NCBI GenBank assembly: GCA_963514005.1
Contig: OY740820.1
Span: forward strand, 24,056,001 to 24,120,000
Source of the DNA: Raja brachyura
Lineage: Eukaryota
DNA: 64,000 nucleotides
Direction of reading: 5' to 3'
The translations under genes were made by a program, and so were the position numbers. The notes below the pieces were generated by a model. That model saw only the letters and a program-made list of their open reading frames with translations, ran no database searches and was not told where the DNA came from. Shown here piece after piece: positions 1 to 52,587 of the stretch (its first letter is position 1; the number at the start of each line of letters is the position of its first letter).

Positions 1-790
1 GGCTAGGGCTGAGGATTGGGCTGGGCCAGGTTTGGGTTTGACGGGGCTGGGGACTGGGCTGGGAGAGTTGGGCTGGATGGGGCTGGACCGGGCCACGGTT
101 TGGTTTGATGGGGCTGGGGGTTGGACTGGGCCACGGTTTGGTTTGATGGGGCTGGGCTGGGAGAGTTGGGCTGGATGAGGCTGGGGTTTGGGCTGGGCCA
201 CGGTTTGGTTTGATGGGGCTGGGCTGGGAGAGTTGGGCTGGACCACGGTTTGGTTTGATGGGGCTGGGCTGGGAGAGTTGGGCTGGATGAGGCTGGGCCA
301 CGGTTTGGTTTGATGGGGCTGGGCTGGGAGAGTTGGGCTGGATGGGGCTGGGGTTTGGGTGGATGGGGCTGGGGTTTGGGCTGGGCCACGGTTTGGTTTG
401 ATGGGGCTGGGCCACGGTTTGGTTTGATGGGGCTGGGCCACGGTTTGGTTTGATGGGGCTGGGGTACGGTTTGGTTTGATGGGGCTGGGCTACGGTTTGG
501 TTTGATGGGGCTGGGCTGGGCGAGTTGGGCTGGATGGGGCTGGGGTTTGGGCTGGGCTACGGTTTGGTTTGATGGGGCTGGGCTACGGTTTGGTTTGATG
601 GGGCTGGGCTGGGCGAGTTGGGCTGGATGGGGCTGGGGTTTGGGCTGGGCTACGGTTTGGTTTGATGGGGCTGGGCTACGGTTTGGTTTGATGGGGCTGG
701 GCTGGGCTGGGCGAGTTGGGCTGGATGGGGCTGGGGTTGGGGCTGGGCTACGGTTTGGTTTGATGGGGCTGGGGGTTGGGCCGGGTTGAT
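1..790. repeat. G-rich complex minisatellite/satellite upstream of LARP6 (truncated by window start)
   Basis: Built from recurring blocks C/TACGGTTTGGTTTGATGGGGCTGGGC (26-bp period around 388-516), GAGAGTTGGGCTGGATGGGGCT and GGGCT pentamers; strong G/T strand skew. Confidence 0.95.
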
Positions 791-1345
791 TGGGAGGCGG
801 GCTGTTGATAAGCGGCCGGGGGAGGCGACCGGGCCCCGCCGCCTCCCATGTACAACCTGCAGGACGCACTACTGCGCTGGGCCGCCTTCCTGGCGCCGCC
901 GGCACTCCGGGAGTCCCTGGCGCCCACCCGGGACCACAGGCTCCTCCCGCCGGCTCGGAGGCCCGGCCTACCCCCGGCCCCGCCCTGCGCTCCTCCTCCG
1001 GCCCAGGCTCGGCCTCGGGGCGGGGGCCCGTGCTCGCCGCTGACCATGGAGGGGGGAACGCTCGGCGACACCGGGGCACCGGCCGGGGAGGCCGCGCCGC
1101 TCGTTCGCATCCAAGTGGCGGCGGCCGAGGAGGAGCCGGCGGCGCGGCCGGAGGGCGGCAGCGTGGGCAGCGGCACGGACGAAGAGGTGGCTCCCGGGCC
1201 CGGGATAAGCAGGTACCGAGGCCGCGGGGAGATGCAGGGAGGGAGCGGGCGAGAAGGGCGGGGGTTGGAGCTCCGTTAATCCGCTCCCTGTGTGTTGCAG
1301 CGGTGCAGAAGATGATCTGGCGGCGGAGTGGGCGCCACCGGACCG
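790..1345 (+). promoter_or_regulatory. CpG island / promoter and first exons of LARP6
   Basis: Very high GC and CpG density, abruptly ending ~1350; GC-box-like GGGAGGCGGG at 792 and TTGATAAG at ~805 just before ATG 848. Confidence 0.7.
848..1212 (+). CDS. LARP6: LARP6 coding exon 1 (in-frame ATGs at 848 and 1046)
   Basis: VRIQVAAAEEE-type LARP6 N-terminus; donor AG|GTACCG at 1212/1213, phase 2; ATG 1046 has strong Kozak context ACCATGG. Confidence 0.8.
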
Positions 1346-1487
1346 TGAGCTGGTGCAGAAACTTGTTGCCCAGATTGAATATTATCTGTCTGATGACTAC
1401 CTGGAAAACGATGCATTTCTACTGAAACACGTGAGAAGAAATAAGATGGGCTATGTCAGTGTTAAACTGCTGACTTCTTTCAAAAAG
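1301..1487 (+). CDS. LARP6: LARP6 coding exon 2 (La motif N-part)
   Basis: Acceptor TGTTGCAG|C; encodes WAPPDRELVQKLVAQIEYYLSD...HVRRNKMGYVSVKLLTSFKK; donor AAG|GTAACA. Confidence 0.97.
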
Positions 1488-3976: not shown

Positions 3977-5065
3977 GTAAAACATCTAACTCGTGACTGG
4001 CAAACAACTGCCTTTGCTCTTAAGTACTCTGACCTTTTGGAACTAAATGATGAAGGGAAAAAAGTGAGACGGAAGACGGCCGTTCCAGTTTTCCCCAGTG
4101 AGCATCTTCCAAGTCAGATACTGCTGGTATATGATATGCTTCTGTGTCCAGAACTCCAGGTTTTAAATGATAATCTAGAATGTGAAAATGCTGGCTTGCA
4201 AGAAAGGATAATGGAGTACGTACTGAAGGCATTTGGTGCGTTTGGTCCAGTCATCTCTGTTCGTGTTATAAAGCCAGGGAAGGAGCTCCCTGCAGATGTG
4301 AAAAGACTGGGCAATCGCTATTCACAGTTGGGAACAAAGGACTGTGTAATTGTAGAGTATGAAAATGTTGAATCTGCAATCAAGGCACACAAATCACTTG
4401 GAAAAAACGATGAAAGGGGAATGAAAGTGGTGCTAATAGAGATGAAACCACCAAAGAAGAAAGTCGTCAGAGAGAAGAACAAAGAGGCTGAAGATGTTGG
4501 CAAGAATGAGATGAAAAGCAAATCTAGCAATAAGCGAGTGGAGGAGTTGCAGTATATATGTGAAGATTCCTCAGCATGCAGCTCTTCTGAACCAGACAGC
4601 AACCCTGCATCTCCTATGCTTGGCCGCAAACCCAAACCCATTAATCAGCTGAGCCCCAACACCTATAAAAACAATCACCTGAGTCCTAACACTTCTCCCT
4701 GGGCTAGTCCGTGGAACAGTCCGCGTTCCAGCCCATTGATGCAACGGAAAGATACAGCTGTGCACAAATCTCCGCTCACTGCAGATGCTAAGCTTGGAGC
4801 TCCTGCAAATGCTGAGGTTGGAAGTAAGTGGACTGACTATTCATCAGACAGCAGCAACACACCGTCTGGCAGCCCCTGGGTACAGAGACGGAAGCAAGCG
4901 CAGGGGGTATCCCATGAGAATACTCCAGTTGGCAGCCCCATGCTTTCTAGAAAGATGCACAGTGCAGGCGGGCTGCCTGCAGGAGTAGTACGCATGCCCA
5001 GAGGACCAGACGGCACTAAAGGATTCCAAACACCTGCAGAGAGGAGCAAGCCGCTTGTAATCTGA
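3977..5065 (+). CDS. LARP6: LARP6 coding exon 3 (end of La motif, RRM, LSA domain)
   Basis: Acceptor TTTTGTTCTAG|GTA; VKHLTRDWQTTAFALKYSDLLELNDEGKKVRR continuing into ORF 4037-5065; TGA at 5063-5065. Confidence 0.97.
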   Translation, partial: VKHLTRDWQTTAFALKYSDLLELNDEGKKVRRKTAVPVFPSEHLPSQILLVYDMLLCPELQVLNDNLECENAGLQERIMEYVLKAFGAFGPVISVRVIKPGKELPADVKRLGNRYSQLGTKDCVIVEYENVESAIKAHKSLGKNDERGMKVVLIEMKPPKKKVVREKNKEAEDVGKNEMKSKSSNKRVEELQYICEDSSACSSSEPDSNPASPMLGRKPKPINQLSPNTYKNNHLSPNTSPWASPWNSPRSSPLMQRKDTAVHKSPLTADAKLGAPANAEVGSKWTDYSSDSSNTPSGSPWVQRRKQAQGVSHENTPVGSPMLSRKMHSAGGLPAGVVRMPRGPDGTKGFQTPAERSKPLVI

Positions 5066-7935: not shown

Positions 7936-8101
7936 TCAGATGTACAACGAGCCGTCAGCAGGCCCAACATAGCCAATCCCAATTAATAGCACATCTATCA
8001 AGGTCCATATTCCAAGGCCGCCAAAACTAAACAGTTTACCAAGACCCTCCTTCCATTGGCCCAAATAGAATCGGTCAGCTCCAAACCCTCCCAAAGTGAT
8101 G
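7936..8101 (-). CDS. TM2D3: TM2D3 exon 6 (TM2 domain, stop)
   Basis: ITLGGFGADRFYLGQWKEGLGKLFSFGGLGIWTLIDVLLIGIGYVGPADGSLYI*. Confidence 0.97.
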
Positions 8102-13892: not shown

Positions 13893-14077
13893 TCACGGTT
13901 TTGCATCCGCCCGACCACAGACTAGAAGCTGGAAATCCTCCTGGGCCTTCGGGGCTCGTTGCTGCTGCAGCCACCTCAGCTGCTCCAGCGTTGCTGCCAG
14001 CGACTGCTCGACATACTCTTTGTTATCTCTCATACAGACATTCACTGTGTCATTCACCTTCTCTTTCTCTCCGACCT
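13893..14077 (-). CDS. TARS3: TARS3 last coding exon
   Basis: EVGEKEKVNDTVNVCMRDNKEYVEQSLAATLEQL...KAQEDFQLLVCGRADAKP*; TTCCTTGCAG| acceptor. Confidence 0.92.
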
Positions 14078-24511: not shown

Positions 24512-24624
24512 CTTCAAATTTGTATATAAAGTTGTATATAATTTAAAACAATATTATGCGATTGTGATGAAAATCAATGAAACATTCTCCCTCGTCAAAG
24601 AGTGGATAGCATACGTTTTCTCAC

Positions 24625-24675
24625 CTTAAAAATTCTGAAAGCTTTAATTTGGTCACGATGCAATTAATCAAGATA
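24625..24675 (-). pseudogene. TARS3: Degenerate relic of the TARS3 editing-domain exon (normally CGPLIDLCxGPHVRHTGKIKxxKIFK)
   Basis: 3' part reads HRDQIKAFRIFK|GTGAG, but there is an in-frame TAA two codons upstream; LINC (LIDLC-like) lies in another frame and the GPHVR segment is absent. Confidence 0.6.
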
Positions 24676-25398
24676 CTTTCAGCAGTTCATCAGTAGAAAA
24701 TATTAGTTGTTATGCCAAATGTCTTTACATTTCTAAGAATGTAGACATGCCTTCTTCATGATTACGTCTATGTGCTGGACCTGGAACAGGTCATCTGATA
24801 TATTATCACACCGGACATTAAAGCTGCTAATGCTCTCCATTGCCGACCAACCAATGAAAACTGAATATTCATTGTCACCTCTTTGGAAGAAACCCTCAGA
24901 CTGTTTAATTATGCTTGATGAGTATAAGCATAATTCTGGTATCCTAAAAAAAATATATACACAGTCAATCCTCGTTATAACAGACCTTAAAGGGTAGGTG
25001 GTGTCTGTTATTGACGATTGTCCACTATAACTTGGTAAAGGAGGATTATTGTATAAATAGTAGAAACACACAACTAGAGTTGCTGGTTGATACACAAAAG
25101 GACACAAAGTGTTTGAGCAACACAGCTAGTCAGCAGCTCTGAAGAACATGGATAGGTAATGTTTTGGATCAAAGAAGAAAGACCAGACCCTTCGTCAGTC
25201 TCTGGACCTGGAATCCAAATGAATTGATGGCCCCGGCCTGTTAGCGGCTGGGGAAGAGGTGAGGGTCATCGGAGTCATTGGTTGCGGGCAGCCGGAGCGC
25301 AGATAAGGGTCGGCGGCAGTGGCGGTGATATTGACGGTGGTAGTGGCAGCGACAGTGGTGGCGGGGATGACGGTGGTAGTCTCAGTGGCGGTGGTGGG

Positions 25399-25584
25399 TG
25401 TAAAGTTTGAGACCACGTAAGGCCCTGTTGTGACTAGCACAAAGAAAACACATCCGACATCTTGTAAGTAAGGTTTAATCTCGACAACCGACGGAAACTT
25501 CTCCAAGGTCACCTGACCTCAATCACGGCGGCACAGGCATTTATATTAAAGGGGCACTGGCATTTATATTACATATACATCACA
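25399..25584 (-). repeat. 3' LTR
   Basis: TGTAAAGTTTGAG...CATCACA; adjacent TCCTCCCCCTT (25585-25595) is the PPT AAGGGGGAGGA on minus. Confidence 0.95.
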
Positions 25585-25855
25585 TCCTCCCCTTTACTAT
25601 AATTACAATTCTCCCACTTTGCTATAATTACAATTCTCTCCCTTCCCTTAAATTACCTTACATCTCCCACTCCAACGTTGGTCAAAACTAATAACTTGAA
25701 CCTTTAATCAATTTAATGTGGATAAAGTACCCCAATAACACAGTGCTCTTTATACTACAAAACTATTAAATAATTGACCAAAAATTTTACATAACAAGTC
25801 AAGTTGGGGGTTTTGACAATCGCCCACTTCTTGTGCAAGTCGTATTTCCAACTCG

Positions 25856-27142
25856 TTATGTGTGGTATTTCTGTTGTGTGCGAGAACCTTGTGATGCAGC
25901 CTGTGATAGTTCTCTTGAGTCTGGGAGACTAGCTCCTTCTCGGAGAGGGGTTCCTCCTTGTGGGAGAGTGTTCGCACTTGTCTGCTGCGTGTTGCCAGGG
26001 CATAGCTCAGCTGCTTCGTGCGCAGGTCGTATGTCCTTCCTGTTTCTGCGGAACTCCGTACTGCTCGGTGTAGAGATGACGTAGCTCCGAGGTGACAGGT
26101 TTTCTCTTGCAATCCAGCCACGTTGCCACTCGGTTGGTTTGGCATGAAACCACACCTGTTGTTGTCCCAGGCGCGGCAGCGGCGTGGCGCTTGCCTTCTC
26201 ATTGAAGTATGCTGCCTGTTTTTCTTGCTGGACGGCCAGTTGTGGTCCCATGGGAGGGACATGATGAGGCAGTAAGAGTGATAGAGGCGATGGCAATTTG
26301 CTTCTTAACAGTCTACTGTTCAGTAACTGTGATGCGGCATAGCCACCTGGCCCGTCAAGGGGTGTGTTGCGGTATTCGAGGATGGCGTACATCGGGTCAC
26401 GGCCGCTTCGTTTGGCTTTCCTCATAATACTTTTTATAGTTTGCACACAGCGCTCTATCTTCCCGTTGCTCTGTGGATATATGGGACTTGAGGTGACATG
26501 GGCAAATTCCCAGGCATTCTGGAACCTACGAAACTCAGCACAGACAAATTGTCGCACATTGTCTGTCATCACCAAGTCTGGAATGCCTTTCCGGGCAAAC
26601 ATGGCCGTCATCTCACGTATCACCAAATGTGACGTCATGTCCGTCAGTTGTGCTATTTCTGGGTACTTGGAGTAAAAGTCCACCACAAGCAAATGGTAAA
26701 CTCCATCCAGATGGAAGATGTCTGTGCCGACCTTAGACCAAGGTCTGCTGGGGATGAAGTGTGGTTGGAGCGGCTCGCTTGCTTGTGTTTTCCTGATCGC
26801 CTGGCATATCGAGCAATTTCCCATAGTGTCCTCAATCTGTGCATTCACTCCTGGCCACACAAATAAATTGCAGGCTCGTTGTTTAAGTTTCACCACTCCC
26901 AGATGCGATTCATGCAGCGCGTTCAGCATCTGCCTTCGCATGCTTTGGGGGACTACAATTCGGTTTTCCCTCAAGACTAATCCATCGACTTCAACCAGCT
27001 CATCATGGTATGTATGAAACGGAGTCAAGTCCGAGGGCAGATCACACCTGTTACTAGGCCAACCTTTTGCTATGTACTCGCACAACAATGTTAGGGTTTG
27101 ATCTTTTTTTTGTTTCAGCTTTGAACTGCGCAAGGCGCTCAT
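25856..27142 (-). CDS. gypsy integrase (separated from RT by a frameshift)
   Basis: HHCC (LHESH...CSIC), D-D-E core (GTDIF, MTDN, NGKIERCVQTIK), PRSY...RRNR C-terminus. Confidence 0.92.
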   Translation of the reverse strand: MSALRSSKLKQKKDQTLTLLCEYIAKGWPSNRCDLPSDLTPFHTYHDELVEVDGLVLRENRIVVPQSMRRQMLNALHESHLGVVKLKQRACNLFVWPGVNAQIEDTMGNCSICQAIRKTQASEPLQPHFIPSRPWSKVGTDIFHLDGVYHLLVVDFYSKYPEIAQLTDMTSHLVIREMTAMFARKGIPDLVMTDNVRQFVCAEFRRFQNAWEFAHVTSSPIYPQSNGKIERCVQTIKSIMRKAKRSGRDPMYAILEYRNTPLDGPGGYAASQLLNSRLLRSKLPSPLSLLLPHHVPPMGPQLAVQQEKQAAYFNEKASATPLPRLGQQQVWFHAKPTEWQRGWIARENLSPRSYVISTPSSTEFRRNRKDIRPAHEAAELCPGNTQQTSANTLPQGGTPLREGASLPDSRELSQAASQGSRTQQKYHT

Positions 27143-28573
27143 CTGACATGTGTAGGATGGCTTCTACAGCATGAATCACGTTCGACAGTGCGGTGTACTC
27201 TTCCGCAGGCGTGTTTGCATTGGGCAACCGACTCAGGGCATCGGGGACAAACATTTCACGTCCTGGCTTCCACCGTATTTCCAGGTCGTACCATAGCAGG
27301 TGCATTCGCTGCAGTCTGGGGCTTAATTTGTGTAGCGGCTTGGCAAGCAAGCCTACTAATGGCTTGTGGTCAGTAAAGATTACTGTGCGCTGACTAACAA
27401 TGAAGTCATGAAACTTTCTGCATGCGTACAATATGGAGCACAGCTCCTTCTCTATAGTCGCATAGTTGCGCTCAGCCGCATTCACACGCTGTGAAGCATA
27501 TGCAACAGGTCTCTCGTCTTGCATCAGTACCGCTCCAAATCTGTTGTTGGAAGCGTCTGTGGCAATTGAAGCGGGCACGTTCACATCGTACAGTTTGAGT
27601 ACGGGTGGCGAAGTGAGAAGACATTTCAGCTTGTCTACTGCCTGTCTGTGCTCCTGCTCAAAATACCACACTATTCCCTTTTCTGTTAGCTGTCTAAGTG
27701 GGGCGGTGATCTCCGAGAGGTTCGGAATAAACATGGCCATGTTTGTCACCATCCCCAAGAACGTTTGCACTTCAGCCTTGTTTGTCGGGTATGGCATTTG
27801 TAACATGCTGCTGACACGAGATGGGCTTGGCGACACGCCTGCTTGCGAGATGACGTGTCCCACATATTCAATCTCATTTGAGCGCATTACCGACTTTCGG
27901 GGATTGAGCTTTAGGCCAGATTCTTCCACCCGTTCGAGTAGGGCTTTCACCCTTGCGTCATGTTGTCCTGTGTTCACACCCCAAACGAGAATGTCGTCAA
28001 CAACTATCTCCACCCCTTCTAAATCGACAAACTCTTCCTGCATCGCCCGCTGCCAAATCTCACTTGCGGATGAGATTCCAAATGGAAGCACGAGGTATCG
28101 GTATCTCCCAAAGGGAGTATTAAATGTGGTCAGACGCAAGCTGTCATCGCTCAGTGGGAACTGCCAGTACCCACTTGTAGCGTGAAATTTCGAGAACCAT
28201 TCTGCATTTGGCATGTGGGCTGCAATGCTCTCGAACGTCGGCATCGGAAATGCTCCCTACGAATGGCCGCATTGAGGTCACGTGGGTCAAGGCATATGCG
28301 GACTTCGCCATTAGGCTTGCTAACCACAGTCATTGAATTCACCCAATCCGTCGGTTCGCTCACGGGCTTTATGACTCTCAAGCTTTCCATGCGCTCTAAT
28401 TCGGCTTTGACCTTATCCCTGATCTTATAGGGGATAGTGCGGGGCAGGTTTTGCTTAGGTTGCACGTTCTCTTGCAGCGCTATGTTGTACTCATGTCTTT
28501 TTAGCCTTCCCAGCCCTTGGAAAATCTCGCGGTTTTCCCTCAATGATCCTCGCAGTGTATGATGGGCTCGCAC
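27054..28573 (-). pseudogene. gypsy reverse transcriptase-RNase H (frameshift near 28245)
   Basis: VRICLDPRDLN; LPFGISSASE; VVDDILV; TDAS...YATIEKE...TDHKPL; split across ORFs 28151-28573 and 27054-28244. Confidence 0.95.
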
Positions 28574-28579
28574 TCACAC

Positions 28580-28981
28580 CATCAACTGCCTCCTTTCGCA
28601 CAAGAAGCCCTAACTTTTCACACGTTAGTTTCCCAAATATGGGTTTCACATTCCCCCTCACTATTTGAAAGACAACCCTGTGCTCTTTCTTGCCTACTTT
28701 GACGTTCCCCTTTGCCTGCCCACAGGCTTCATTGTATGTCCAGAGTATGACCTCAGTGTCACGTTCGTGTTCAGTAAGGCAAGACCAGTCTTTCTGAACA
28801 AGTGCTCTGGCAGGATGTCCACTTCAGCTCCAGAGTCAAGTTTGAACTCAATGTTCACATTGTTGATGCTGCACATCTGTCCCCATTCACGCGTTGACTC
28901 AATCACAGCGTCAGTCACGGCGTCAATGTAGAAGACATCAACATCGTCGTTCACTGGCTCAGGCAGCGGTGCAGTGTTCAT
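28580..28981 (-). pseudogene. gypsy aspartic protease (frameshifted)
   Basis: FKLDSGAEVDIL active-site motif in ORF 28694-28981. Confidence 0.88.
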
Positions 28982-29039
28982 CTGGAACTCGACGTCGCGG
29001 ACGTCATGGCTCCAGTCCCCGGCCTTTTGTCTGATTAAC

Positions 29040-29805
29040 TGTCATGTTGTCGGGGACGTGGGCGGCTGTTGGGCGCTCTATTTACCGGGCAGTCGGGGGA
29101 TCTGGAAAGATGTCCAATCTCTGCACAGGTATAACATCTCATGTACTGAGCAGGGCAGTAGTTGCTTTTATGCCTGCGGGTGCATGACCGGCAGACGGTA
29201 TCCTTACCAGAATCACGGATTTCTGTCTGCGGTTGTCTGGGTCACGAATCCCTGCCCCATGGCCGACTGGCTCTGTCCCATTTCACGTAATCAACAGTCT
29301 CTTCAGTGTCGATGGCAGTTGGGGCAATCTGCTTCATCTGTTCGGCTGCTGCTTCAGCTATCAGACACATGTCACTGCATTTTTCCAGTGTTTAATCATG
29401 GCATTGTAGTAGTTTTTCCCCAGAGTGGCTGGCTGCTGATGCCGCAGACAATTCTGTCTCGCAGCAATGAGTCATAGATAATGCCAAACTCACAATCTTT
29501 GGCTAAAGACTTCACTGCAGTCAGGTAGCTGGAGAAGGTCTCCCCTCGCCGCTGATTACGTGTATTAAAGATATATCTTGAGACAGTTAAGTTATTTTTT
29601 GGTTCACAGTATGTCTGAAACTTAGTCTTCAGCGTTTGTATTTTGTCAGTTTCCTCCTGGGCAAACTCAAAGGTCTCATAAATCTCCTGAGCTGCCGGCC
29701 CGGCTACGTGGAGGAATGTTGCACACCAAATCTTATCTGGTTTATTTGTCAGTTCTGTTGCCGCCTCGTACAGCTGGAATGCCCTTATCCAGCCCTTATA
29801 ATTCT
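29040..29805 (-). pseudogene. gypsy gag (5'-truncated, frameshifted; two CCHC zinc knuckles)
   Basis: WIRAFQLY...RYIFNTRNQRRGETFSSYLTAVKSLAKDCEFG...LRDRIVCGI; downstream CRSCTRRHKSNYC and CYTCAEIGHLSRSPDC. Confidence 0.88.
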
Positions 29806-29808
29806 TGG

Positions 29809-29824
29809 CCCACTTCTGACACCA
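29809..29824 (-). other. Primer binding site complementary to tRNA-Leu 3' end
   Basis: Minus strand TGGTGTCAGAAGTGGG immediately inside the 5' LTR; matches the CCCACTTCTGACACCA 3' end of tRNA-Leu. Confidence 0.85.
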
Positions 29825-30010
29825 TGTAAAGTTTGAGACCACGTAAGGCTCTGTTGTGACTAGCACAAAGAAAACACATCCGACATTTTTAAAGTAAGGT
29901 TTAAACTCCACAAGCGACGGAAACTTCTCCAAGGTCACCTGACCTCAATCACGGTGGCACAAGCATTTATATTAAAGGGGCACTGGCATTTATATTACAT
30001 ATACATCACA
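29825..30010 (-). repeat. 5' LTR
   Basis: Direct repeat of 25399-25584 with 9 substitutions by manual comparison. Confidence 0.95.
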
Positions 30011-31094
30011 GTGGGGGTGACACCTGTGGCAGCGATGGTGATGGTGTTGGCGGCGGCTTTGGAGCAATCAGGTTGGAGGTGGTAGGTGGCCGTGGTGGGT
30101 GTGGTGGTAGGAGCAGCCGGAGAGGCAGCCGGAGAGGTGGCACAGGCCAGGATGGCATCAGCTGCCCAGCCTGGCAGTGTAGGTCGGTAGGTCTGTCCGC
30201 TATAGCTAAAATCCATAATAAAGAGGTCCGAAAAGCAAGGATTTACTGTGTATCTTTTTTATAACAAAGTCAGAACAGTGTTTTTGTATGGGTCCAACAT
30301 AATTTCAATCCATCTTATGAAGTTGCCAGGTGCATGTTTTTTTTTGGTCACCGTAACCTGAAGCATATATGTTTTAATGAAGTTTGCTCCTGTAACTCCC
30401 TTGTGTTCCCCCAATCCCACTTGGAAACATGTTCCAAGGAGCATGTGACCAGGGAACTTGGATTGTTTTCTCTGGAGCATCAGGGTAGCTTCTGAGAATC
30501 AGTTTCGATCATCAGGTTTTACCAGAATCAAACTCGAATCAATCAGCACTCCAGTCTACCATGTTGGTTAACTTGATGCTATGGATTGGAATCACTAAAG
30601 ATTTTCATTTACGTTCAGGAAAATGAAATTTGTTAAGGGCTTGTGGCTATCCCTGGCAAAGAAAGCACTTATTGCACAGCTGTAATTGCCTTTCAACTAC
30701 ACAAGGTTCATTTGGTCAGTTCAGAGATAAGAGTTAACCACATGGTTGTGGGTCTGGGATCAAAGAGTGCCACATTTTCTTGTTTGACTAGATGGGTTTT
30801 TACAAGGCAGCAGTTTAATGGTGATCAGTACCCAGACCACCCTTTTCAATGCAAAGGGATTCAAACTCATGTATCCAGATCAATAGACCAGGCCTCTGAG
30901 TGCTGGCCTTGCAAGTTCACTACACTCATGTCAAAAGCTAACTACTGACAATCACAAAATTTATTAATTTAGAACATGCAGATTGTTCCTGAATCAAGCC
31001 TTTTCCCCTCTAATGAGATGAAGGGCAACAATTAGTTTTGGCTGGGATGAGCAGAGAGAATTGTTTGTAAACTTGAATGACAACATCAATCACA

Positions 31095-31270
31095 AATGTA
31101 GGAAGGAACTGTAGATGCTAGTTTTCACCGAAAGATAGACCTTCCATTCTCCCCTTAATCTCAGCCTGAAAAAGGGTCTCGACCCAAAACGTCACCCGTT
31201 CCTTTTTCTCCATTTTTCAGATGCTGCCTGACCTGCTGAGTTACTCCAGCATTTTGTGTCTATCTTCAAT
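31095..31270. mobile_element. Penelope pLTR-derived short element
   Basis: GTAGGAAGGAACTGTAGATGC...GATAGAC and GGGTCTCGACCCAAAACGTC...GAGTTACTCCAGCATTTTGTGTCTATC. Confidence 0.65.
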
Positions 31271-32505
31271 CACAAATGCATTCCAAACCAGTATTGGGCT
31301 GGTTTTAAATGTAACCAACAGGGCTGTAACGAATTCTGCACAAGATCGCCAGAGTTTATGAAGAACAGCTCTTTTCCAAAGTTATTTAAGATTAGTGCTC
31401 AAAGCAGCAAGTGAGCCGCCAAACCCGAGGATTGACTAAGGTCAGCAAGTACATGATACTGGGAAGTATTCATTTACCCAAACGTCAGTAGTGAAAGCCT
31501 GGACGAGAAAGCACAGGTGGCTTTGGTGTTGTGGGAAATTTCTGGAGGAAGCCTAGATGGATCATCCACGGCCCTTCTGCTTGAACATGGCTGCAACTGC
31601 TTCAGCACTTGCAGGCCAGCCTCAGTGGTTGTTGTGGACAGATGACTGTGAACCAACTTTCATCAGCTGTTCAATTTTCCAGCACAACTCAGAACCACAA
31701 ACAACTGCATTACAGAACTTCAATTGGATCAGTTAATTGTGGGATTGTTTAGTTCCTTCCTTTACATGGTGTTATTGCAGTTTGTGCACAATGTGTTACA
31801 GTTTTGACAGGCCGAAGCCTGGTACATTTCTCAGCTGGCCAGTCTGTATTTCTCTTCGAAGTTGAGGATTATGAAAGAGCTTGGAACGCTACTTTTAAGG
31901 AATGATTCTGAGTGGAACTATTTCAAGCTGTTGTTCAACTACAGTATAACACAGCACTCCTGCCTTATACACCAGCCACCAGATGTTTGTGAAAAACACA
32001 TTTTAAACATTATTGTCCTGTCAATTACTTCCCCAAATTCAATACTGATCCCTGATGAGGCAACCGTTTTGTTTTTAATCCATTTTAATGTCACAGTTAT
32101 GGTACAACCGCCTGACCGGTTTAAGTAGTAAATCAATGGATTAGGAGTCTCATTTAGGCAAGAGTAGGTAAGGATGACAGATGTCCTACCCTAAAGGGTA
32201 GTGGCAAATTGTGTGGGGTTTTAAGATAATGCAATAGCTTTCCTCATTACACAATGGTCATTACAGTATTGGTCACCTTATTTAAGGAAAGACGTTAATG
32301 TGTTGGAAGCAGTCAGAGAACGTTTAAGATTATTATTAAGTTAATACTTGGAATGGGGGGGGGGGAGTTGCCTTACGATTTTACACCGAGTACTCTAGTA
32401 TTTGTCAATTAGGGAGGTCAATGGGTAGTGTTTAGGTTCAGGCAACGATGCCCAGTAGAGCTGGTGTCTCTCACACCAACGTGTCCCAGATAATTGCCGC
32501 CCTAC

Positions 32506-32742
32506 CTGGGGCCTAGGACCGGCGCTGTGTGGGGCCGGGCCCCTCGCCATCTCCGCCCGCAAGCTCCGCTGCAGGTGCAGTCGACGATACTTCAACTTCT
32601 CGTTCTCCTCTCTGAGGCTCTGCAAGTCCGAGCCGACTAGTAACTCCTCGTCTTCACTTTGCAGCCGCTCAATCACCTGACTGAGCCGACGGACCTCAAC
32701 CTCTTGGCCGGCCAAGAGCCGCGCTATCGCCGCCGCCATCAT
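32506..32742 (-). CDS. TARS3: TARS3 exon 1 (N-terminal coiled-coil/leucine-zipper extension)
   Basis: MMAAAIARLLAGQEVEVRRLSQVIERLQ...LQSLREENEKLKYRRLHLQRSLRAE; donor CAG|GTAGGG, phase 0. Confidence 0.9.
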
Positions 32743-32764
32743 CCCGCTCACCCCACGGCCGCCG

Positions 32765-32913
32765 GCAGGCGCACTGACAGACCGCCGGCACCCACGCAGG
32801 CGCACTGACGGACCGCCGGCACCCACGCAGGCGCACTGACGGACCGCCGGCATCCACGCAGGCGTACTGACAGACCGCCGGCACCCACGCAGGCGTACTG
32901 AGCGACCGCCGGC
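32765..32913. repeat. 31-bp tandem repeat (~4.8 copies) at the TARS3 promoter/5'UTR
   Basis: Unit GCAGGCG(C/T)ACTGAC(A/G)GACCGCCGGCACCCAC; begins ~23 bp upstream of the ATG. Confidence 0.92.
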
Positions 32914-46030: not shown

Positions 46031-48535
46031 TTTCTACCAAAGTGGGTGGCTTCACATTCCCCATATTTGTCCTCCTCACTATAACTGCTCATTTAGTTTG
46101 TCCGGTTTTCTTGATTGTTATTACTCTTCTTACACGTTCCTCTACTTTCCCAAGTTAGCATTGCTGTTTGGGATCTATGTACAAATCCCACCATTTGTTT
46201 CTGCTTCCTAGTTCCCGGACTTCACTCAAAATAATTTTCTCTCCTTCATTTTCAGAAGTTAATCCAATTCCTCCACTGCAATTTTTTGCAACTAGTTCCA
46301 CAAATCAACATCTATTTAGATGCTTAACATCTTCCAGGAGAAATGAAGCATATTTAATTTTATGCAAAACATAAGCTACAAATGAGAGTTGGCTTATGGA
46401 TCTCTGTGAGAGTGGAAGGCAGGAAACCACAGGAAGTTGTATCTGAAACACTTGTGGTTACAGAATTTCCGGCCAAATTTCCTACTGTAACCGAGATTGG
46501 GCGTCTTGTGTGAAGTTCTTGGTCTTAGAATTGTGTAGTTTGTTCTTTTATTTTTCTTCTGTCTTCATGCTGGATTTTAATCCATCGCTTCAGCTGGTAC
46601 CATTTAGCAGTTCACTGCAGATAAAGGGCAGCATTGCAGGAGCCGGCTAAACAGCAGAGGCAGCACTGCAGCAGCAGTAGGGGTCATATAGCACATTATT
46701 GGCAGCACTACCGCAGCAGATGTACTTGCAGGGGGAACAGCATAGCTGCAGAGGCATTTCAGGGACAGTGTTGTCATTGCCAAGGCATGGGCAGTGGTGT
46801 AGGAGCAGGGGCCAGGGTGGTGCTCTGGCTGCAGAAGCACTGCTGCTGCAGAAACTGCAGCATTATAGGAACACAAGTTGGTCCATTGACGAAGAGTATT
46901 TGTAAATCAAGGCTTCTTAGCTGGCAAAAAAAAAATGTTTTGGAGAAAGCTGTGATCTCTGATCTTTGTTATTCTTCAGTGACTGGAAAATACTACCAAT
47001 ACTGCCTCCAAGTTCACTGGGAGGATTTGTGAACCATCATCAGCTTTCTCTCCTACTTCAACCTCTGCAGCATTGAGGTTCTAGTCATTCCCAGTTGGTA
47101 ATGTTATACAGGCCATGTTGTTTGTATGTTTAACACAAGGTACCAAAGACAGAACCAATATTCCCAGCACCCTTGTAAGAGGCTGTTATTTGTTGAACAG
47201 AAGAACAAATTCAAGAAGGTGATCTTCTGGGAAAAAATAAAACATTCCAACTAACTCCAGGAATGTCCAGCCCACAATTGTTCAAAGTGGAGTATGGTTT
47301 TGAGAACTTATAGCCATGCATTAGGAATCCACAGAAATCCTGCTCCAGCAACAGGAGCACACCACCTCACAAACTGTCAGCCTATCCGTCAGCTTCATAT
47401 CTGACAAAAATAAACAGTTGACTCAGCCCTCCTGTCCCATTTGAGGAAGAACTATGGGTCATCTTGGCCATCTCAGAACCCAGTACAGAAGCAAGTTATT
47501 CTTAATCTTGAGATACAGTGTAACAATAACAAGGAACAGGAACTGCACCTACTACAGCATTCAATGAGATCGTGGGTTATTTTTCAGCAGTACTACTTTC
47601 ACACATATATCTACAGTTGTTTTCATAATATCCACAAATCTATGAATCAATATTTTAAATATATTTAGTGATTGAACCACCACTGCATCTTGGATGGAGA
47701 AGTCCCAACAGTGAAGACTATCTGGGTGAATACATTTCTTCCTCGCCCTGTCACAAATGATTAGTACTATATCTTGAGTCAGTAACCCCTGGTTTTAGAC
47801 ATCCCAGTCAGGAAAAATATTATCCCAACAACTCTCCGGCCCTACTAATATTGTTTCTTGTTTCTGGGGCCAAGCGATTTGTTGAAGGCTACAGCAGGAA
47901 CAGCATCCGAGATCAGTCCACCATTGCAACTGCTGAGTGAAGTAGACAGCAGCACCTTTATCAATCCTGTAGTTAGACCGTCACCAACAGTCAAGTTTAT
48001 TGCAGTGAAATGAAAAGTGGCAGTGCCTGTGGACTTTGTGCAAAAAAACAAACAATCATGGAACAGAACAACACAACTGCTTTAAATTAAGTGGTCAATA
48101 TCCCGTAAAAGAAAATGAAATTGAGATTTGCAGTTTAGTTTCTTGTCACATGTACCGAGGTTTTTATTGAGTGCTATCCAGTCACCAGAAAGACAATACA
48201 TGATAACAATCGAGCCATTTACAGTGTATAGATACATGAAAAGGGAATAATGTTTAGTGCAAGGTAAAGCCAGCAAAGTTTGATCATGGATAGACTTGAG
48301 GGTCACCAAAGAGGTAGATAGTAGTTCAGCACTGCTCTCTGGTTGTTATAGAATAATTCAGTTGCCTGATAACAGATGGGATGAAACTGTCCCTGAATCT
48401 GGAGGTGTGGAAGATTTAGATTATGCATTGACAGGAGGCTCTTTTCTTGGGAGTCACTCAACTTGGCTTAGATCCACAAACAAATAAACCGCTGGAGGAA
48501 CTCAGCCACCGTCCATGAAGGTGGAGATTGGATCA

Positions 48536-49180
48536 CTGTGTGGGTGGAGGTAGGTGGACTTTGGCTCACTGTGTGGGTGGGAGTAGGTGAAGCCTGGTTC
48601 ACTGTGTGGGGGGTTAGGTGGACACTGGTTCACTGTGTGGGGGGTTAGGTGGACACTGGTTCACTGTGTGGGGGGTTAGGTGGACACTGGTTCACTGTGT
48701 GGGTGGGGGTAGGTGAAGCCTGGTTCACTGTGTGGGGGGTTAGGTGGACACTGGTTCACTGTGTGGGTGGGGGTAGGTGAAGCCTGGTTCACTGTGTGGG
48801 GGTTAGGTGGACACTGGTTCACTGTGTGGGTGGGGGTATGTGAAGCCTGGTTCACTGTGTGGGGGGTTAGGTGGACACTGGTTCACTGTGTGGTGGGTTA
48901 GGTGGACACTGGTTCACTGTGTGGGGGGTGGTTAGGTGGACACTGGTTCACTGTGTGGGTGGGGGTAGGTGAAGCCTGGTTCACTGTGTGGGTGGGGTTA
49001 GGTGGACACTGGTTCACTGTGTGGGGGGGTTAGGTGGACACTGGTTCACTGTGTGGGGGGGGTTAGGTGGACACTGGTTCACTGTGTGTGGGGGTTAGGT
49101 GGACACTGGTTCACTGTGTGGGGGGGGGGGGTTAGGTGGACACTGGTTCACTGTGGGGGTAGGGTAAGCCTGGTTCACAA
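48536..49180. repeat. G-rich ~31-33-bp minisatellite (~20 copies) abutting the TJP1 proximal promoter
   Basis: Units GGTTAGGTGGACACTGGTTCACTGTGTGGGG and variant GGTAGGTGAAGCCTGGTTCACTGTGTGGGTGGG. Confidence 0.95.
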
Positions 49181-49436
49181 GGTGGATGGAGGTCCCTGCG
49201 TGGACTGTGTGGAGATCATGCAGGGGTATATATAGCGGTGGGGGCGGGCTGACATGCGGACTGCAATGTGATAGGTGGAGGCAGGCGTGGGGGGCGGGAC
49301 CTGTGCGCCAGAGAAAGTTACTGATTGGATGGTGGAGTGCCGGCGACACCAGTTGGCTAGTTCTCCTGTCACTCACCGTGGTCGCTAGGTGCCGGGTAGG
49401 TCCGGGGCCCTGTTGTTGTTTGCCGCCGCTGGGACA

Positions 49437-49547
49437 GCGGACTCACAGTAACTGGGGAACCGCCGCCGGGACCGGATAGCGGGCTCGCAGTGACTGGGGA
49501 ACCGCCGCCGGGACCGGGCAGCGGGCTCGCAGTGACTGGGGAACCGC
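49437..49547. repeat. 42-bp tandem repeat (~2.6 copies) in the TJP1 5'UTR
   Basis: GCGGGCTCGCAGTGACTGGGGAACCGCCGCCGGGACCGG(ATA/GCA) starting at 49437, 49479 and 49521. Confidence 0.9.
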
Positions 49548-49659
49548 AGCGGGCGGGTAACTGGCGCAGACAGATCCTCGCCCGCCTGGGATGTTCGGCT
49601 GGAGCCTGTGAGGAGCGGCGGATTCAGGCCGCGGTTTCTGCTTCAACCAGCAAAACAAG

Positions 49660-49692
49660 ATGTCCGCCCGAGCGGCCGGAGCAGCGGGCAAG
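49660..49692 (+). CDS. TJP1: TJP1 proximal first coding exon
   Basis: ACAAGATG TCC GCC CGA GCG GCC GGA GCA GCG GGC AAG|GTCGGG = MSARAAGAAGK, cf. ZO-1 MSARAAAAK. Confidence 0.9.
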
Positions 49693-52587
49693 GTCGGGGC
49701 CTGAGGCGGGGAGCAGCGGGCCTGGGGCGGGCACCAACGGGCGGGGAGCAGGGGGCCTGAGGCGGGCAAGGTCCTGGGTTAGGGATTGGAGGACGAGGTG
49801 GCAGGCACAGCGCCAACCCTCTTTGGGTCTGGCAGGTTTGGGTGTGTGAGCAGTGAACCCGGGAGTGTGTGAGGCGTCCGGGGTCGGGTGGGCAGCACCC
49901 CCCCCCCCACCCCGCTGGCTGCGGTTCCGACAGCATTGTAGTTGTAAAGTTTAAACTTCACAGCTCGCATCACTTTATTGGATCTTCCTGGTGTTTTTTT
50001 TGCTCGGTATTTGAAAGAGGCGGCGTTGCCGTACACTAGTGAGATTAGAAGTAATTTTAGTGCGATGATGTAACTTTATGGTATGCCTTCGAAACCATGG
50101 AAAGGGTGCGATGAGTATCTCATCAGATGATTCTGCTGCGTAAGTATCTCATCACCATAAAAGTAAAAATCAGATTTATAAAAAGACTTATGAACTGACG
50201 GCAGTTCGAGCGGAGTGAGTTGTATGGTTCCATGACTGAGTTTAATCGCCGGTCCTGTATTCTTTGAGTCTCTTGAATTGTTGTAAGTGACAGAATTGAA
50301 TGTGTCTTATTTGTAGTAGTAAATCCTCAGATGTTGGACGGAAGAGGTGTTTACTATGTTTGTTGGTTGTACTACTGGTTGAAGACGGTGGCTACCTTGA
50401 GCAACAGCGGACGCTCATTTAACCAATTGTGGTGCGAGGGCTTGGTTTTAAACACGGGTGTCCCGACGTGAAAGATGATGCCTCGTCATTTACAACCTGT
50501 ACTGGTTTACTATTTTTACCAAGACCACGAGGGAGAACAGTAGTCAATATTTCTTTAAACAAGGAAGACAAATAACAATTTTAGATTTCGGTAAAGCTTA
50601 ACATTTTTAAACATTAGTTAATTTTCGACAACTGGCTACCAAACTGTTGTAAAATTTCCTGATTCATATGCCGTAATTTAAGAGTGAAGTATTGGAGATT
50701 TGAAATCTGGTTGTTTGTGTTCTTGTTTTTTTTTAAATGTTTATCTAGTTTAGTTAAGGTACTTTGAAGCAGAATCAGTCATGAAGAATAATGGACTCCA
50801 AAAGAATAATCAAAATACACCCTGAAATATTGACCCAGGTGCAATTGCATCGTAGAAATATTTGAATTTAAATATGAACTATAAATAAGTAGGAACGAAT
50901 TGAAGGTCAGATCACTGATAATTTATTCATACTTCTGAGTGTGTTGCACGAGCTTGACTATGATTGACTATGATTCTGCTGATTTGAGAGCTATTGTCTG
51001 TGGGGAGTTGGGAGTAATTTTAAGTGGAGCCGGCCCCAACCTCGAAATTATGGTGGGAAGAGTAGTGATGTGCTTGGGTGTTTCAGCAGTTAAATGAAAA
51101 GTTGTTTGAGTGAGGCAGATTTGCCCCATCTTGCTTTGTAGTTTTTTTACTGCGCTTATTTTTAGATTAGTTACGTTGTTTTAAACAACTAGGGTCTTGA
51201 ACAGACCTGATTTACGAACCAACGCATTAATGAATCATTCTCTTCAATGATAAACTGGATGACTAGTTGATATAGAATTAATGTTGACATTGCAATGCAA
51301 TAATACAGCCCAGTAATGCACTGTTTTGTTCCTGTGCTGATGTCAATCTGAAGGGAGTGAGCCAGAATCAACAAAGTAGTTTGCTTTTAGTGGCTGTGTG
51401 ATTGGGGAGTGAACCTTGTTTTAATGATTTTTAGGTTCCTGTATGTGGAGGTGAATGTCTTGATTCAATGCAGTGACTTGTATACTGGGTTTCTGGGAAA
51501 CTATTCTAGATTGCCAAGGTTTTGTTGAAGCTGATGTATTTTAGTGCTTTGCCTGATTGTACTTGGAATACTGTTTATGGCAGGACTGAGAGCTTTCAGT
51601 AGTGTGAATGTGACCAAATTCTGTAAAGCTGTGTGGGCTGGAAATTCCTTTGTGCAAACATTTGAATACAGTGCAGTCACTGCCCAGTTAGAATTGTTGC
51701 AACTTTTGGGGTAGTTTCCTGGAATTGTTAACAATACATTGTACGTGAGTGAAAATTTACATGCTGCCATTTATGTAAAACAAAATCCTGTATCTGGACA
51801 AGATTCCGTGTGTAAATAAAATGCGTAATGCTGACTAAGGAATGGAGTACGAGGCCTGGAGGGTAGGGTTCACAAAAGGTCAGAGTGAGGGGAGCAGATT
51901 GTTTGTTTATGGAGGAGATTGGAGAAGGAAAAACAACGATTTAAATGGAGGGGCAGGAATTTTAGCATTTGCAACCTTGGGATCTGGTGCTGATCTCCAA
52001 CGGTAGAATTTAGGATGACATAGGTGCCTTGCCCTTTACTGCCACAAGTGAAATTGTTAACAAGCTCACTGCTGGCTTTGGTTTTGTCCTGATCAGCAAC
52101 ATTTTGGAGTAAAAAGCCATTTATCACTGGGATTAGGGAACCTTTAAAGCTGAAGTTCTGCTGCAGTTGTAATAAGCACTTGTTTCTGGGGCCGTTATAT
52201 TTTGCTTGAACCATCTGCAGTTGTAGAACATGGTTGTTAAATTTTAAAGAGTACATGTCCAGAATTGTGGCAGATGGTCTGTCAGAAATCTAAACAGTAT
52301 GTTGTGCATTTGCTGATTTCACATTACAGCAGTTGTTCAATTTTGTTATAAATCAATTAGTGAAATATTTGGGAAGAATTATTTATAGAGTAAGCTTGGT
52401 GACAAATTATTCCCCGAAAGAGGATGTTTTAGTGCTGAAATTGAATTCTACTTCAATACTAAGCTGTGAAAGATACCAAGCTCCTGGTTGGATTTACATC
52501 TGCCATTCGTGTTCAACGGATGTCAATGACAAGAAAGCATTTGTGGACAATTATATTCTTGGGTATTAAATCTGAAAATGTATTAAA

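Follow-up and report, generated by a model that had tools for sequence, protein, structure and literature searches.

Can a vertebrate threonyl-tRNA synthetase (ThrRS) shed its proofreading domains and persist, and what might such a protein then be for? The question is raised by the TARS3 gene in a 64,000-nt stretch of DNA from the skate Raja brachyura (assembly GCA_963514005.1, contig OY740820.1, positions 24,056,001 to 24,120,000), here called the window, with positions counted from its first letter. An original prediction, made from the letters alone, held that exon 1, ending in phase 0, and all exons from a linker exon to the stop are open with good splice sites and together encode an in-frame, editing-less ThrRS of 529 aa. 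The gene model bears this out: 12 minus-strand exons, spliced in frame through AG acceptors, GT donors and one GC donor, yield a 529-aa protein that is open to its stop (P0001), in a window containing no N, and other skates have proteins with the same junction. Sequence comparison makes it likely that skate TARS3 is no longer a working tRNA-Thr ligase and is a regulatory subunit of the multi-synthetase complex (MSC). The narrower proposal, to which we would give about an even chance, is that of an MSC-docked ThrRS fold, poor at charging, that probably still binds threonine and ATP.

Exon 1 (32742-32506, 79 aa, with a phase-0 donor) encodes a two-helix leucine-zipper N-extension; helices are predicted for residues 2-30 and 39-67 of P0001, and its sole PDB match is the N-terminus of human ArgRS (4r3z_B, E=0.0016). 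After intron 1 come the linker exon (24511-24380; N2 acceptor-stem hairpin, RIYG and DHR helix), which is open but eroded, a catalytic-domain exon with a phase-0 start (23306-23208), an exon with HWQH and MNC (22594-22428; the Y313 equivalent is C187, the zinc ligand C208), the motif 2 exon (21066-20904; R237, E239, R249 and H259), a catalytic exon with the GC donor at its 3' end (20580-20443), the GAFYGPK exon (20064-19987; Y335), the QCATIQLD exon (19901-19801; the R476 equivalent is I349) and the motif 3 exon (19376-19272; zinc ligand H385 and R394). The anticodon-binding domain occupies the exons at 14929-14860 and 14784-14670 (the R583 equivalent is K457), and the last coding exon (14077-13893) holds E474, C483 as the R609 equivalent, and a skate-specific tail of 12 aa before the TGA. 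A tail of about 12 aa beyond the usual ThrRS end (13893-13930 in the window) is found in all the skates and changes fast. The zinc ligands and motifs 2 and 3 named in the original prediction are thus all present, while P0001 has no match to the TGS family PF02824. A candidate exon at 17042-16945 proved wrong and is absent from the final 12-exon model. Two AlphaFold2 models of P0001, built on 6 and on 77 rows, were of poor quality, with mean pLDDT values of 47.6 and 54.9. As to orthology, the window protein falls inside the elasmobranch TARS3 clade (support 100/100), the TARS1 rows stand apart (100/99), and the protein forms one group with the skate models (100/100).

The short form is shared by other skates. 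A search with exon 1 returned five protein clusters, the best of which has 22 members and a lead protein of 531 aa with no TGS or SAD Pfam match; 12 of the 15 members listed measure 529-535 aa and three are shorter pieces. The 529-535-aa proteins include those of Amblyraja, Leucoraja and Rhinoraja, to whose models the window protein is 94.3%, 94.1% and 89.8% identical, and they have the exon 1 junction predicted for the window; every aligned cluster member that reaches the junction is without N1/N2. The frame is open in the 12 listed full-length skate proteins as in the window, and all indels are of whole codons. The module is kept in Narcine, Hypanus, Hemitrygon, Mobula and most sharks. One 458-aa contig protein (P0018) begins with a short peptide that, by eye, agrees with the intron sequence immediately preceding the linker exon; it would be a zipper-less product of intron retention or of an alternative start.

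Splicing was read from contigs of four runs from related organisms (X1, X3, X6 and X12) that are RNA only by guess, X3 being flagged as probably DNA. None of the runs listed for the stretch is on record as RNA from the window's own species: 18 runs with a small share are RNA by guess alone, and those that hold most of it, from organisms D and E, are not RNA. In all four runs, the five core introns of the compared stretch are joined at the predicted borders, and the GC-AG intron (20442-20065) is removed. Exon 1 junctions were taken from contig piece coordinates, the table of joints being swamped by repeats. In X6, letter 242 is the last of exon 1 and the linker exon takes over at 248, which gives the exon 1-linker junction plus one extra codon, and X12, with 234 letters (99+135) between exon 1 and the 22594 exon, likewise has this junction with an extra codon. 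In X1, the closest run (9/752 letters differ), exactly 99 letters separate exon 1 from the 22594 exon, and exon 1 therefore joins the 23306 exon with the linker exon skipped; in X3 the junction is ambiguous. The predicted splice of exon 1 to 24511 thus holds in the related-skate runs X6 and X12 but not in the closest one.

What, then, became of the missing exons? Measured against the stingray protein P0003, about 233 aa of N1/TGS and N2 are missing, a module that corresponds to six exons in the paralog TARS1. Their place is taken by intron 1 (32505-24512, minus strand, 7,994 nt), in which, as predicted, 5.3 kb is nested transposon. A terminal-inverted-repeat (TIR) element of 5,297 nt (24957-30253, no strand assigned; TIRs at about 24950-24972 and 30238-30260, with TA flanks), which is Tc1/mariner-like by its features, hosts a 4.6-kb long-terminal-repeat (LTR) retroelement on the minus strand (25399-30010). 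The latter has 186-nt LTRs (25399-25584 and 29825-30010) differing at 9/186 positions, TG..CA ends and a 5-bp target duplication, and its reverse transcriptase, RNase H and integrase frames are all broken. Outside the TIR element the intron has 445 nt and 2,252 nt left, and a short interspersed repeat with other copies in the window lies at 31096-31270 (no strand assigned). The claim that no intact TGS or HSSAH exon remains here stood up to a sensitive tblastn of intron 1 with seven ray and shark TARS3 proteins and to a frameshift-aware profile scan in which six exon peptides were compared with the two segments free of the LTR element, with one amendment: the orphan 3' end of the CxGPH editing exon survives as 12 codons and a GT donor at 24660-24625 (minus strand), with in-frame stops upstream. 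This remnant scored 39.4, a value equalled in 0/60 shuffles, while the remaining 11/12 peptide/segment pairs stayed within the shuffles. Two other candidates were discarded, a YNK-exon remnant at about 25040-24980, which lies inside the TIR element and whose score 24/60 shuffles reach, and a DNA-level match to the TARS1 CxGPH exon at 24860-24746, which is not significant (16/300 shuffles). The editing-site residues H73, H77, D180, C182 and H186 of N2 (Escherichia coli numbering) are not kept, the H that skates show in column 186 being an alignment artefact from exon 1.

The end of TARS3 exon 1 and the starts of the next two retained exons are all in phase 0, so that loss of the module keeps the reading frame; in TARS1 of the same genome, the counterparts of those two exons, which start NSS and EQEL, have phase-0 starts as well. 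Of the 11 acceptors of TARS3, that of the linker exon is the poorest in pyrimidines. A single deletion ending within the CxGPH exon, before the split of Rajidae and Arhynchobatidae, would account for the loss. The LTR insertion is unlikely to have been its cause, because the LTRs differ at 9/186 positions while Rhinoraja shares the loss.

The module was apparently lost once more, independently, in carpet sharks. A second homolog search, with P0001, gave 644 hits, and of the best 120 one further protein lacked both TGS and SAD, a 481-aa Hemiscyllium model, whose cluster adds two Chiloscyllium models (473 aa) and one from Stegostoma (489 aa) with the same module missing. In these models exon 1 is joined to the EQEL exon (the 23306 exon equivalent), which is the architecture seen in X1. 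In a tree of 31 rows and 394 shared columns (LG+G4), skates lie within batoids and carpet sharks lie apart, so that two changes are needed, and a single clade of the eight short proteins is rejected (p-AU 9.6e-5, approximately unbiased test). TARS3 proteins of whale shark, guitarfish or sawfish, and chimaera were not among the matches listed.

The short proteins part with residues unevenly. Residues were mapped on E. coli ThrRS, whose numbering is used for equivalents, and the contact set was chosen partly after the motifs had been seen. Fifteen residues, M332, C334, R363, E365, F379, Q381, D383, H385, Y462, K465, Q479, Q484, H511, S517 and R520, are those that we take to bind zinc, threonine or ATP. 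All 15 are kept in 8/8 short proteins (four skate, four carpet-shark); in the window the zinc ligands are C208, H259 and H385 (C334, H385 and H511), and the arginines R237 and R394 (R363 and R520). Contacts to tRNA are lost at 4-5 of 10 positions in every short protein (Fisher p 0.005-0.017 each). Skates lose the equivalents of Y219, Y313, R476 and R583, and in the window and Rhinoraja also R609, the window substitutions being Y313C, R476I, R583K and R609C, with E600 kept as E474; the labels E600 and R609 are our assumption, matched by spacing to E425 and R434 of MST1. The original prediction does not mention these losses. In carpet sharks a deletion has removed the hairpin residues; R583 is lost as well, and in 3/4 R609, while Y313 and R476 are kept. 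The roles of the zinc ligands and R363 in ThrRS have been described, as has the binding of the tRNA 3' end by Tyr313 and Arg363 (PMC9880928), and hairpin 201-214, Arg375 and Arg583 are reported to contact the tRNA (PMC4756836). In stingrays, where editing is retained, Y205 and R609 are gone too, as is R583 in 2/4, so the tRNA contacts were likely relaxed first; such relaxation in batoids might have made proofreading superfluous before the module went. The TARS3 proteins of Narcine, two lamniforms and three carcharhiniforms (P0021, P0004, P0028, P0034, P0035 and P0029) keep N1/N2, with an editing residue changed in two of them, and have lost R363, D383, Y462 or R520.

The original prediction left the choice between a repurposed paralog and early decay, and substitution patterns favour the former, together with the apparent second loss. 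Thirty differences were listed, of which nine were intronic and excluded and 21 exonic, differences closer than about 35 nt to an exon end being omitted. In the interior of six core exons, 15 synonymous stand against 6 non-synonymous changes (dN/dS, omega, 0.12-0.16; p 2e-6 to 5e-5 versus neutrality), and whole exons compared with X12, which was paired with P0010 by assumption, give 11 against 7 (omega 0.20, p 9e-4). On the X12 clock, omega is 0.29 for the zipper, 0.21 for the catalytic domain, 0.65 for the anticodon domain, 1.1 for the linker and 2.6 for the read-through tail, so that values near or above 1 are confined to linker and tail, and the frame is undisrupted. Exon 1 is the best-kept segment among the skates, with 2/62 aa differing between the window and each of three named skates. 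In 1,500 runs of a neutral simulation the frame survived in at most 0.1% with indels and 0.2-9% without. The zipper and the catalytic core are under purifying selection and the linker is not, and simple decay is therefore not what the core displays.

The editing module was also sought elsewhere. Protein searches of the genome assembly revealed no relocated TARS3 N1/N2; the 7/16 candidates that gave matches lie in TARS1 (five), in one exon that we take by likeness to be from TARS2 and in one similarly taken to be from MRPL39, and PF07973 exceeded its cut-off only at TARS1, which is intact on contig C1 with HSSAH and CRGPH. The lone TARS2-like exon (C49:8009336-8009530) lies beside a 200-N gap, and the 100 kb around it yielded no further ThrRS exon. 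Its solitude raised the thought that the short protein has replaced mitochondrial TARS2, or, more generally, that an assembly gap or a free-standing editing gene elsewhere explains the missing module. Such an artefact or relocation is very improbable, given that the window has no N, that spliced contigs skip the module, that the same model emerges from three further skate assemblies and that N1/N2 and PF07973 were found only where stated. Run X12 moreover holds a third ThrRS paralog, likely TARS2, as read by hand from loose contig ends, and the single TARS2-like exon is likely to reflect an assembly gap.

For the MSC-docked, charging-poor protein, the following course of events can be proposed. 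The leucine zippers would dock TARS3 on the MSC via AIMP1 and RARS1, as in mammalian TARS3; the catalytic domain would dimerise with itself or with TARS1; the retained pocket would bind threonine and ATP or make threonyl-adenylate; and charging and editing would fall to the intact TARS1, TARS3 taking no part in bulk charging. Both zippers are reported to be required for MSC entry, and TARS3 to co-precipitate TARS1 (PMC6794377); Tarsl2 knockout reportedly leaves tRNA-Thr charging unchanged (PMC10200997), and a bacterial ThrRS without its editing domain is described as keeping activation with weakened charging (PMC4267643). Several observations weigh against this proposal. H309, R375 and E600 are kept in 8/8 short proteins and R609 in 3/8, and 6/13 editing-keeping elasmobranch TARS3 have lost at least one of the 15 ligand residues, so the pocket is not a function shared by all elasmobranchs and may be vestigial. 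The chance of 15/15 retention is 0.13-0.20 per lineage at the change rate of the other invariant catalytic columns, of which 19-24/203 have changed in both editing-less lineages. The carpet-shark evidence consists of four RefSeq gene models. Synonymous sites (10/84) outpace one intron piece (11/295, 3.7%; p 0.011), and dN (4/248) is not significantly below that 295-nt piece (p 0.19), for which reason omega may be underestimated and approach 0.4 on the intron clock; the window branch, the longest of three rajid rows, is long (0.04 versus 0-0.008), and the omega of the anticodon domain is about 0.65. From the literature, the core of yeast cytosolic ThrRS is reported to lose much of its activation and charging (PMC3592468), yeast mitochondrial ThrRS to charge without an editing domain and with Lys at the R583 position (PMC4756836), and MSC integrity to be undisturbed by Tarsl2 knockout (PMC10200997).

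Part of this evidence can be read in other ways. Only zippers and dimerising fold might matter, as a structural tether that holds, for example, TARS1 or another partner at the MSC, the active site being a vestige not yet eroded; TARS3-TARS1 binding is reported to rely on the catalytic domain (PMC6794377), the zipper is the best-kept part among skates, retention of 15/15 could be chance, and the elasmobranchs that lost R363, Y462, D383 or R520 equivalents retain the gene. We consider this doubtful, since every ligand residue survives in the two editing-less lineages whereas other invariant catalytic columns have changed, and since the MSC is said to hold together without Tarsl2 (PMC10200997). 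An unproofread threonine ligase of low rate, similar to MST1, with TARS1 clearing Ser-tRNA-Thr, possibly as a heterodimer, would suit the complete synthetic site, the retention of H309, R375 and E600, the charging reported for natural editing-less ThrRSs (PMC4267643, PMC4756836) and the solved human catalytic constructs, which start at about the equivalent point. It is nevertheless unlikely: skates are without the equivalents of Y313, R476, Y219 and R583, and the window also without R609; the yeast cytosolic core reportedly fails to rescue a ThrRS knockout (PMC3592468), and even full-length mammalian TARS3 is described as leaving charging in vivo unaffected (PMC10200997). Less probable still is slow decay of a transcribed gene towards a pseudogene. 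The omega values of linker, anticodon domain and tail, the long window branch with its private changes at invariant columns, a dN not significantly below that of one intron and the reported dispensability of zebrafish TARS3 (PMC10200997) fit it, but the 15:6 synonymous excess, a frame open in the window, in 12 listed skate proteins with whole-codon indels only and in four carpet-shark models, and the rare survival of that frame in neutral simulation with indels do not. A wider version of the preferred proposal, which we put forward tentatively, is that elasmobranchs twice reduced TARS3 to a minimal sensor of the MSC, a zipper with a threonine/ATP pocket responding to threonine or adenylate, and that in other lineages it was the active site that broke down and the editing domain that stayed.

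Some further features of the window and the assembly may be recorded. The GC-rich 5' region of TARS3 has 31-nt tandem repeats of family D2 (32734-32888, no strand assigned), and a CpG-rich island with no gene identified lies upstream at 48000-50000. Downstream, a TM2-domain exon of a TM2D3-like neighbour occupies 8002-8100 (minus strand; PF05154, E=9.5e-13), in line with the synteny of TARS3 and TM2D3. A plus-strand open reading frame at 3977-5065 with SUZ-C and a weak RRM match is presumably LARP6-like, and a GC-rich open frame of 471 aa at 3-1418 (minus strand) has no Pfam match. On contig C26 (about 5353600-5354150, minus strand), an intronless chimera combines the first coding part of a Rab-type GTPase (Pfam Ras), TARS3 exon 1 in a copy that stops at the donor, lacks 16 nt and is 89.7% identical over 242 columns, and a further piece; we take the outer parts to be RAB18-like and NOA1-like, and the whole has the look of a product of three genes that arose by retrocopying or exon capture.

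TARS3 has been described as the sole duplicated aminoacyl-tRNA synthetase gene of vertebrates, and as one whose knockout stunts mice with tRNA-Thr charging unchanged (PMC10200997, PMC11088916); its catalytic activity is said to have 'been maintained throughout evolution' (PMC11088916). A conserved, spliced and editing-less TARS3, which seems to have originated twice, means that selection in these fishes is not for proofreading and probably not for charging, and the skate and carpet-shark genes, whose short models carry in RefSeq only the label 'threonine--tRNA ligase 1, cytoplasmic-like', are natural deletion alleles with which TARS3 function can be tested. If the sensor proposal is true, these natural halves would show where in TARS3 the unexplained, non-translational role in vertebrate growth resides. 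Loss of the module in a vertebrate cytosolic paralog, and its repetition, appear to be new, no description having been found in the literature outside subscription journals and supplements.

Among known systems, vertebrate TARS3 (TARSL2, ThrRS-L) is the tree orthologue and shares the ArgRS-like zipper, the TM2D3 neighbour and the catalytic and anticodon domains, whereas the skate form has no N1/TGS or N2, the domain through which mouse TARS3 is reported to edit Ser-tRNA-Thr (PMC5909460), and has lost several tRNA contacts. The carpet-shark models (473-489 aa) have the same fusion of zipper and core, no TGS or SAD, 15/15 ligands and no R583, but are of separate origin, lack the linker exon, keep Y313 and R476 and are gene models only. 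Yeast mitochondrial MST1 and the split ThrRS of crenarchaea are likewise natural cores without an editing domain in cis (PMC4267643, PMC4756836, PMC3592468), yet they are the working ligases of their compartment, whereas skate TARS3 is a spare paralog beside TARS1 and bears an MSC zipper. The truncated laboratory ThrRSs (PDB 1evk and 4hwt) consist of the same catalytic and anticodon fragment, but are engineered, without a zipper and with tRNA contacts intact. The best functional analogue appears to be LeuRS-I of the Sulfolobaceae, a duplicate with a disrupted editing domain that is reported to form the adenylate with no aminoacylation (PMC9437257), although it is a class I archaeal enzyme that binds tRNA and has no homology to ThrRS.

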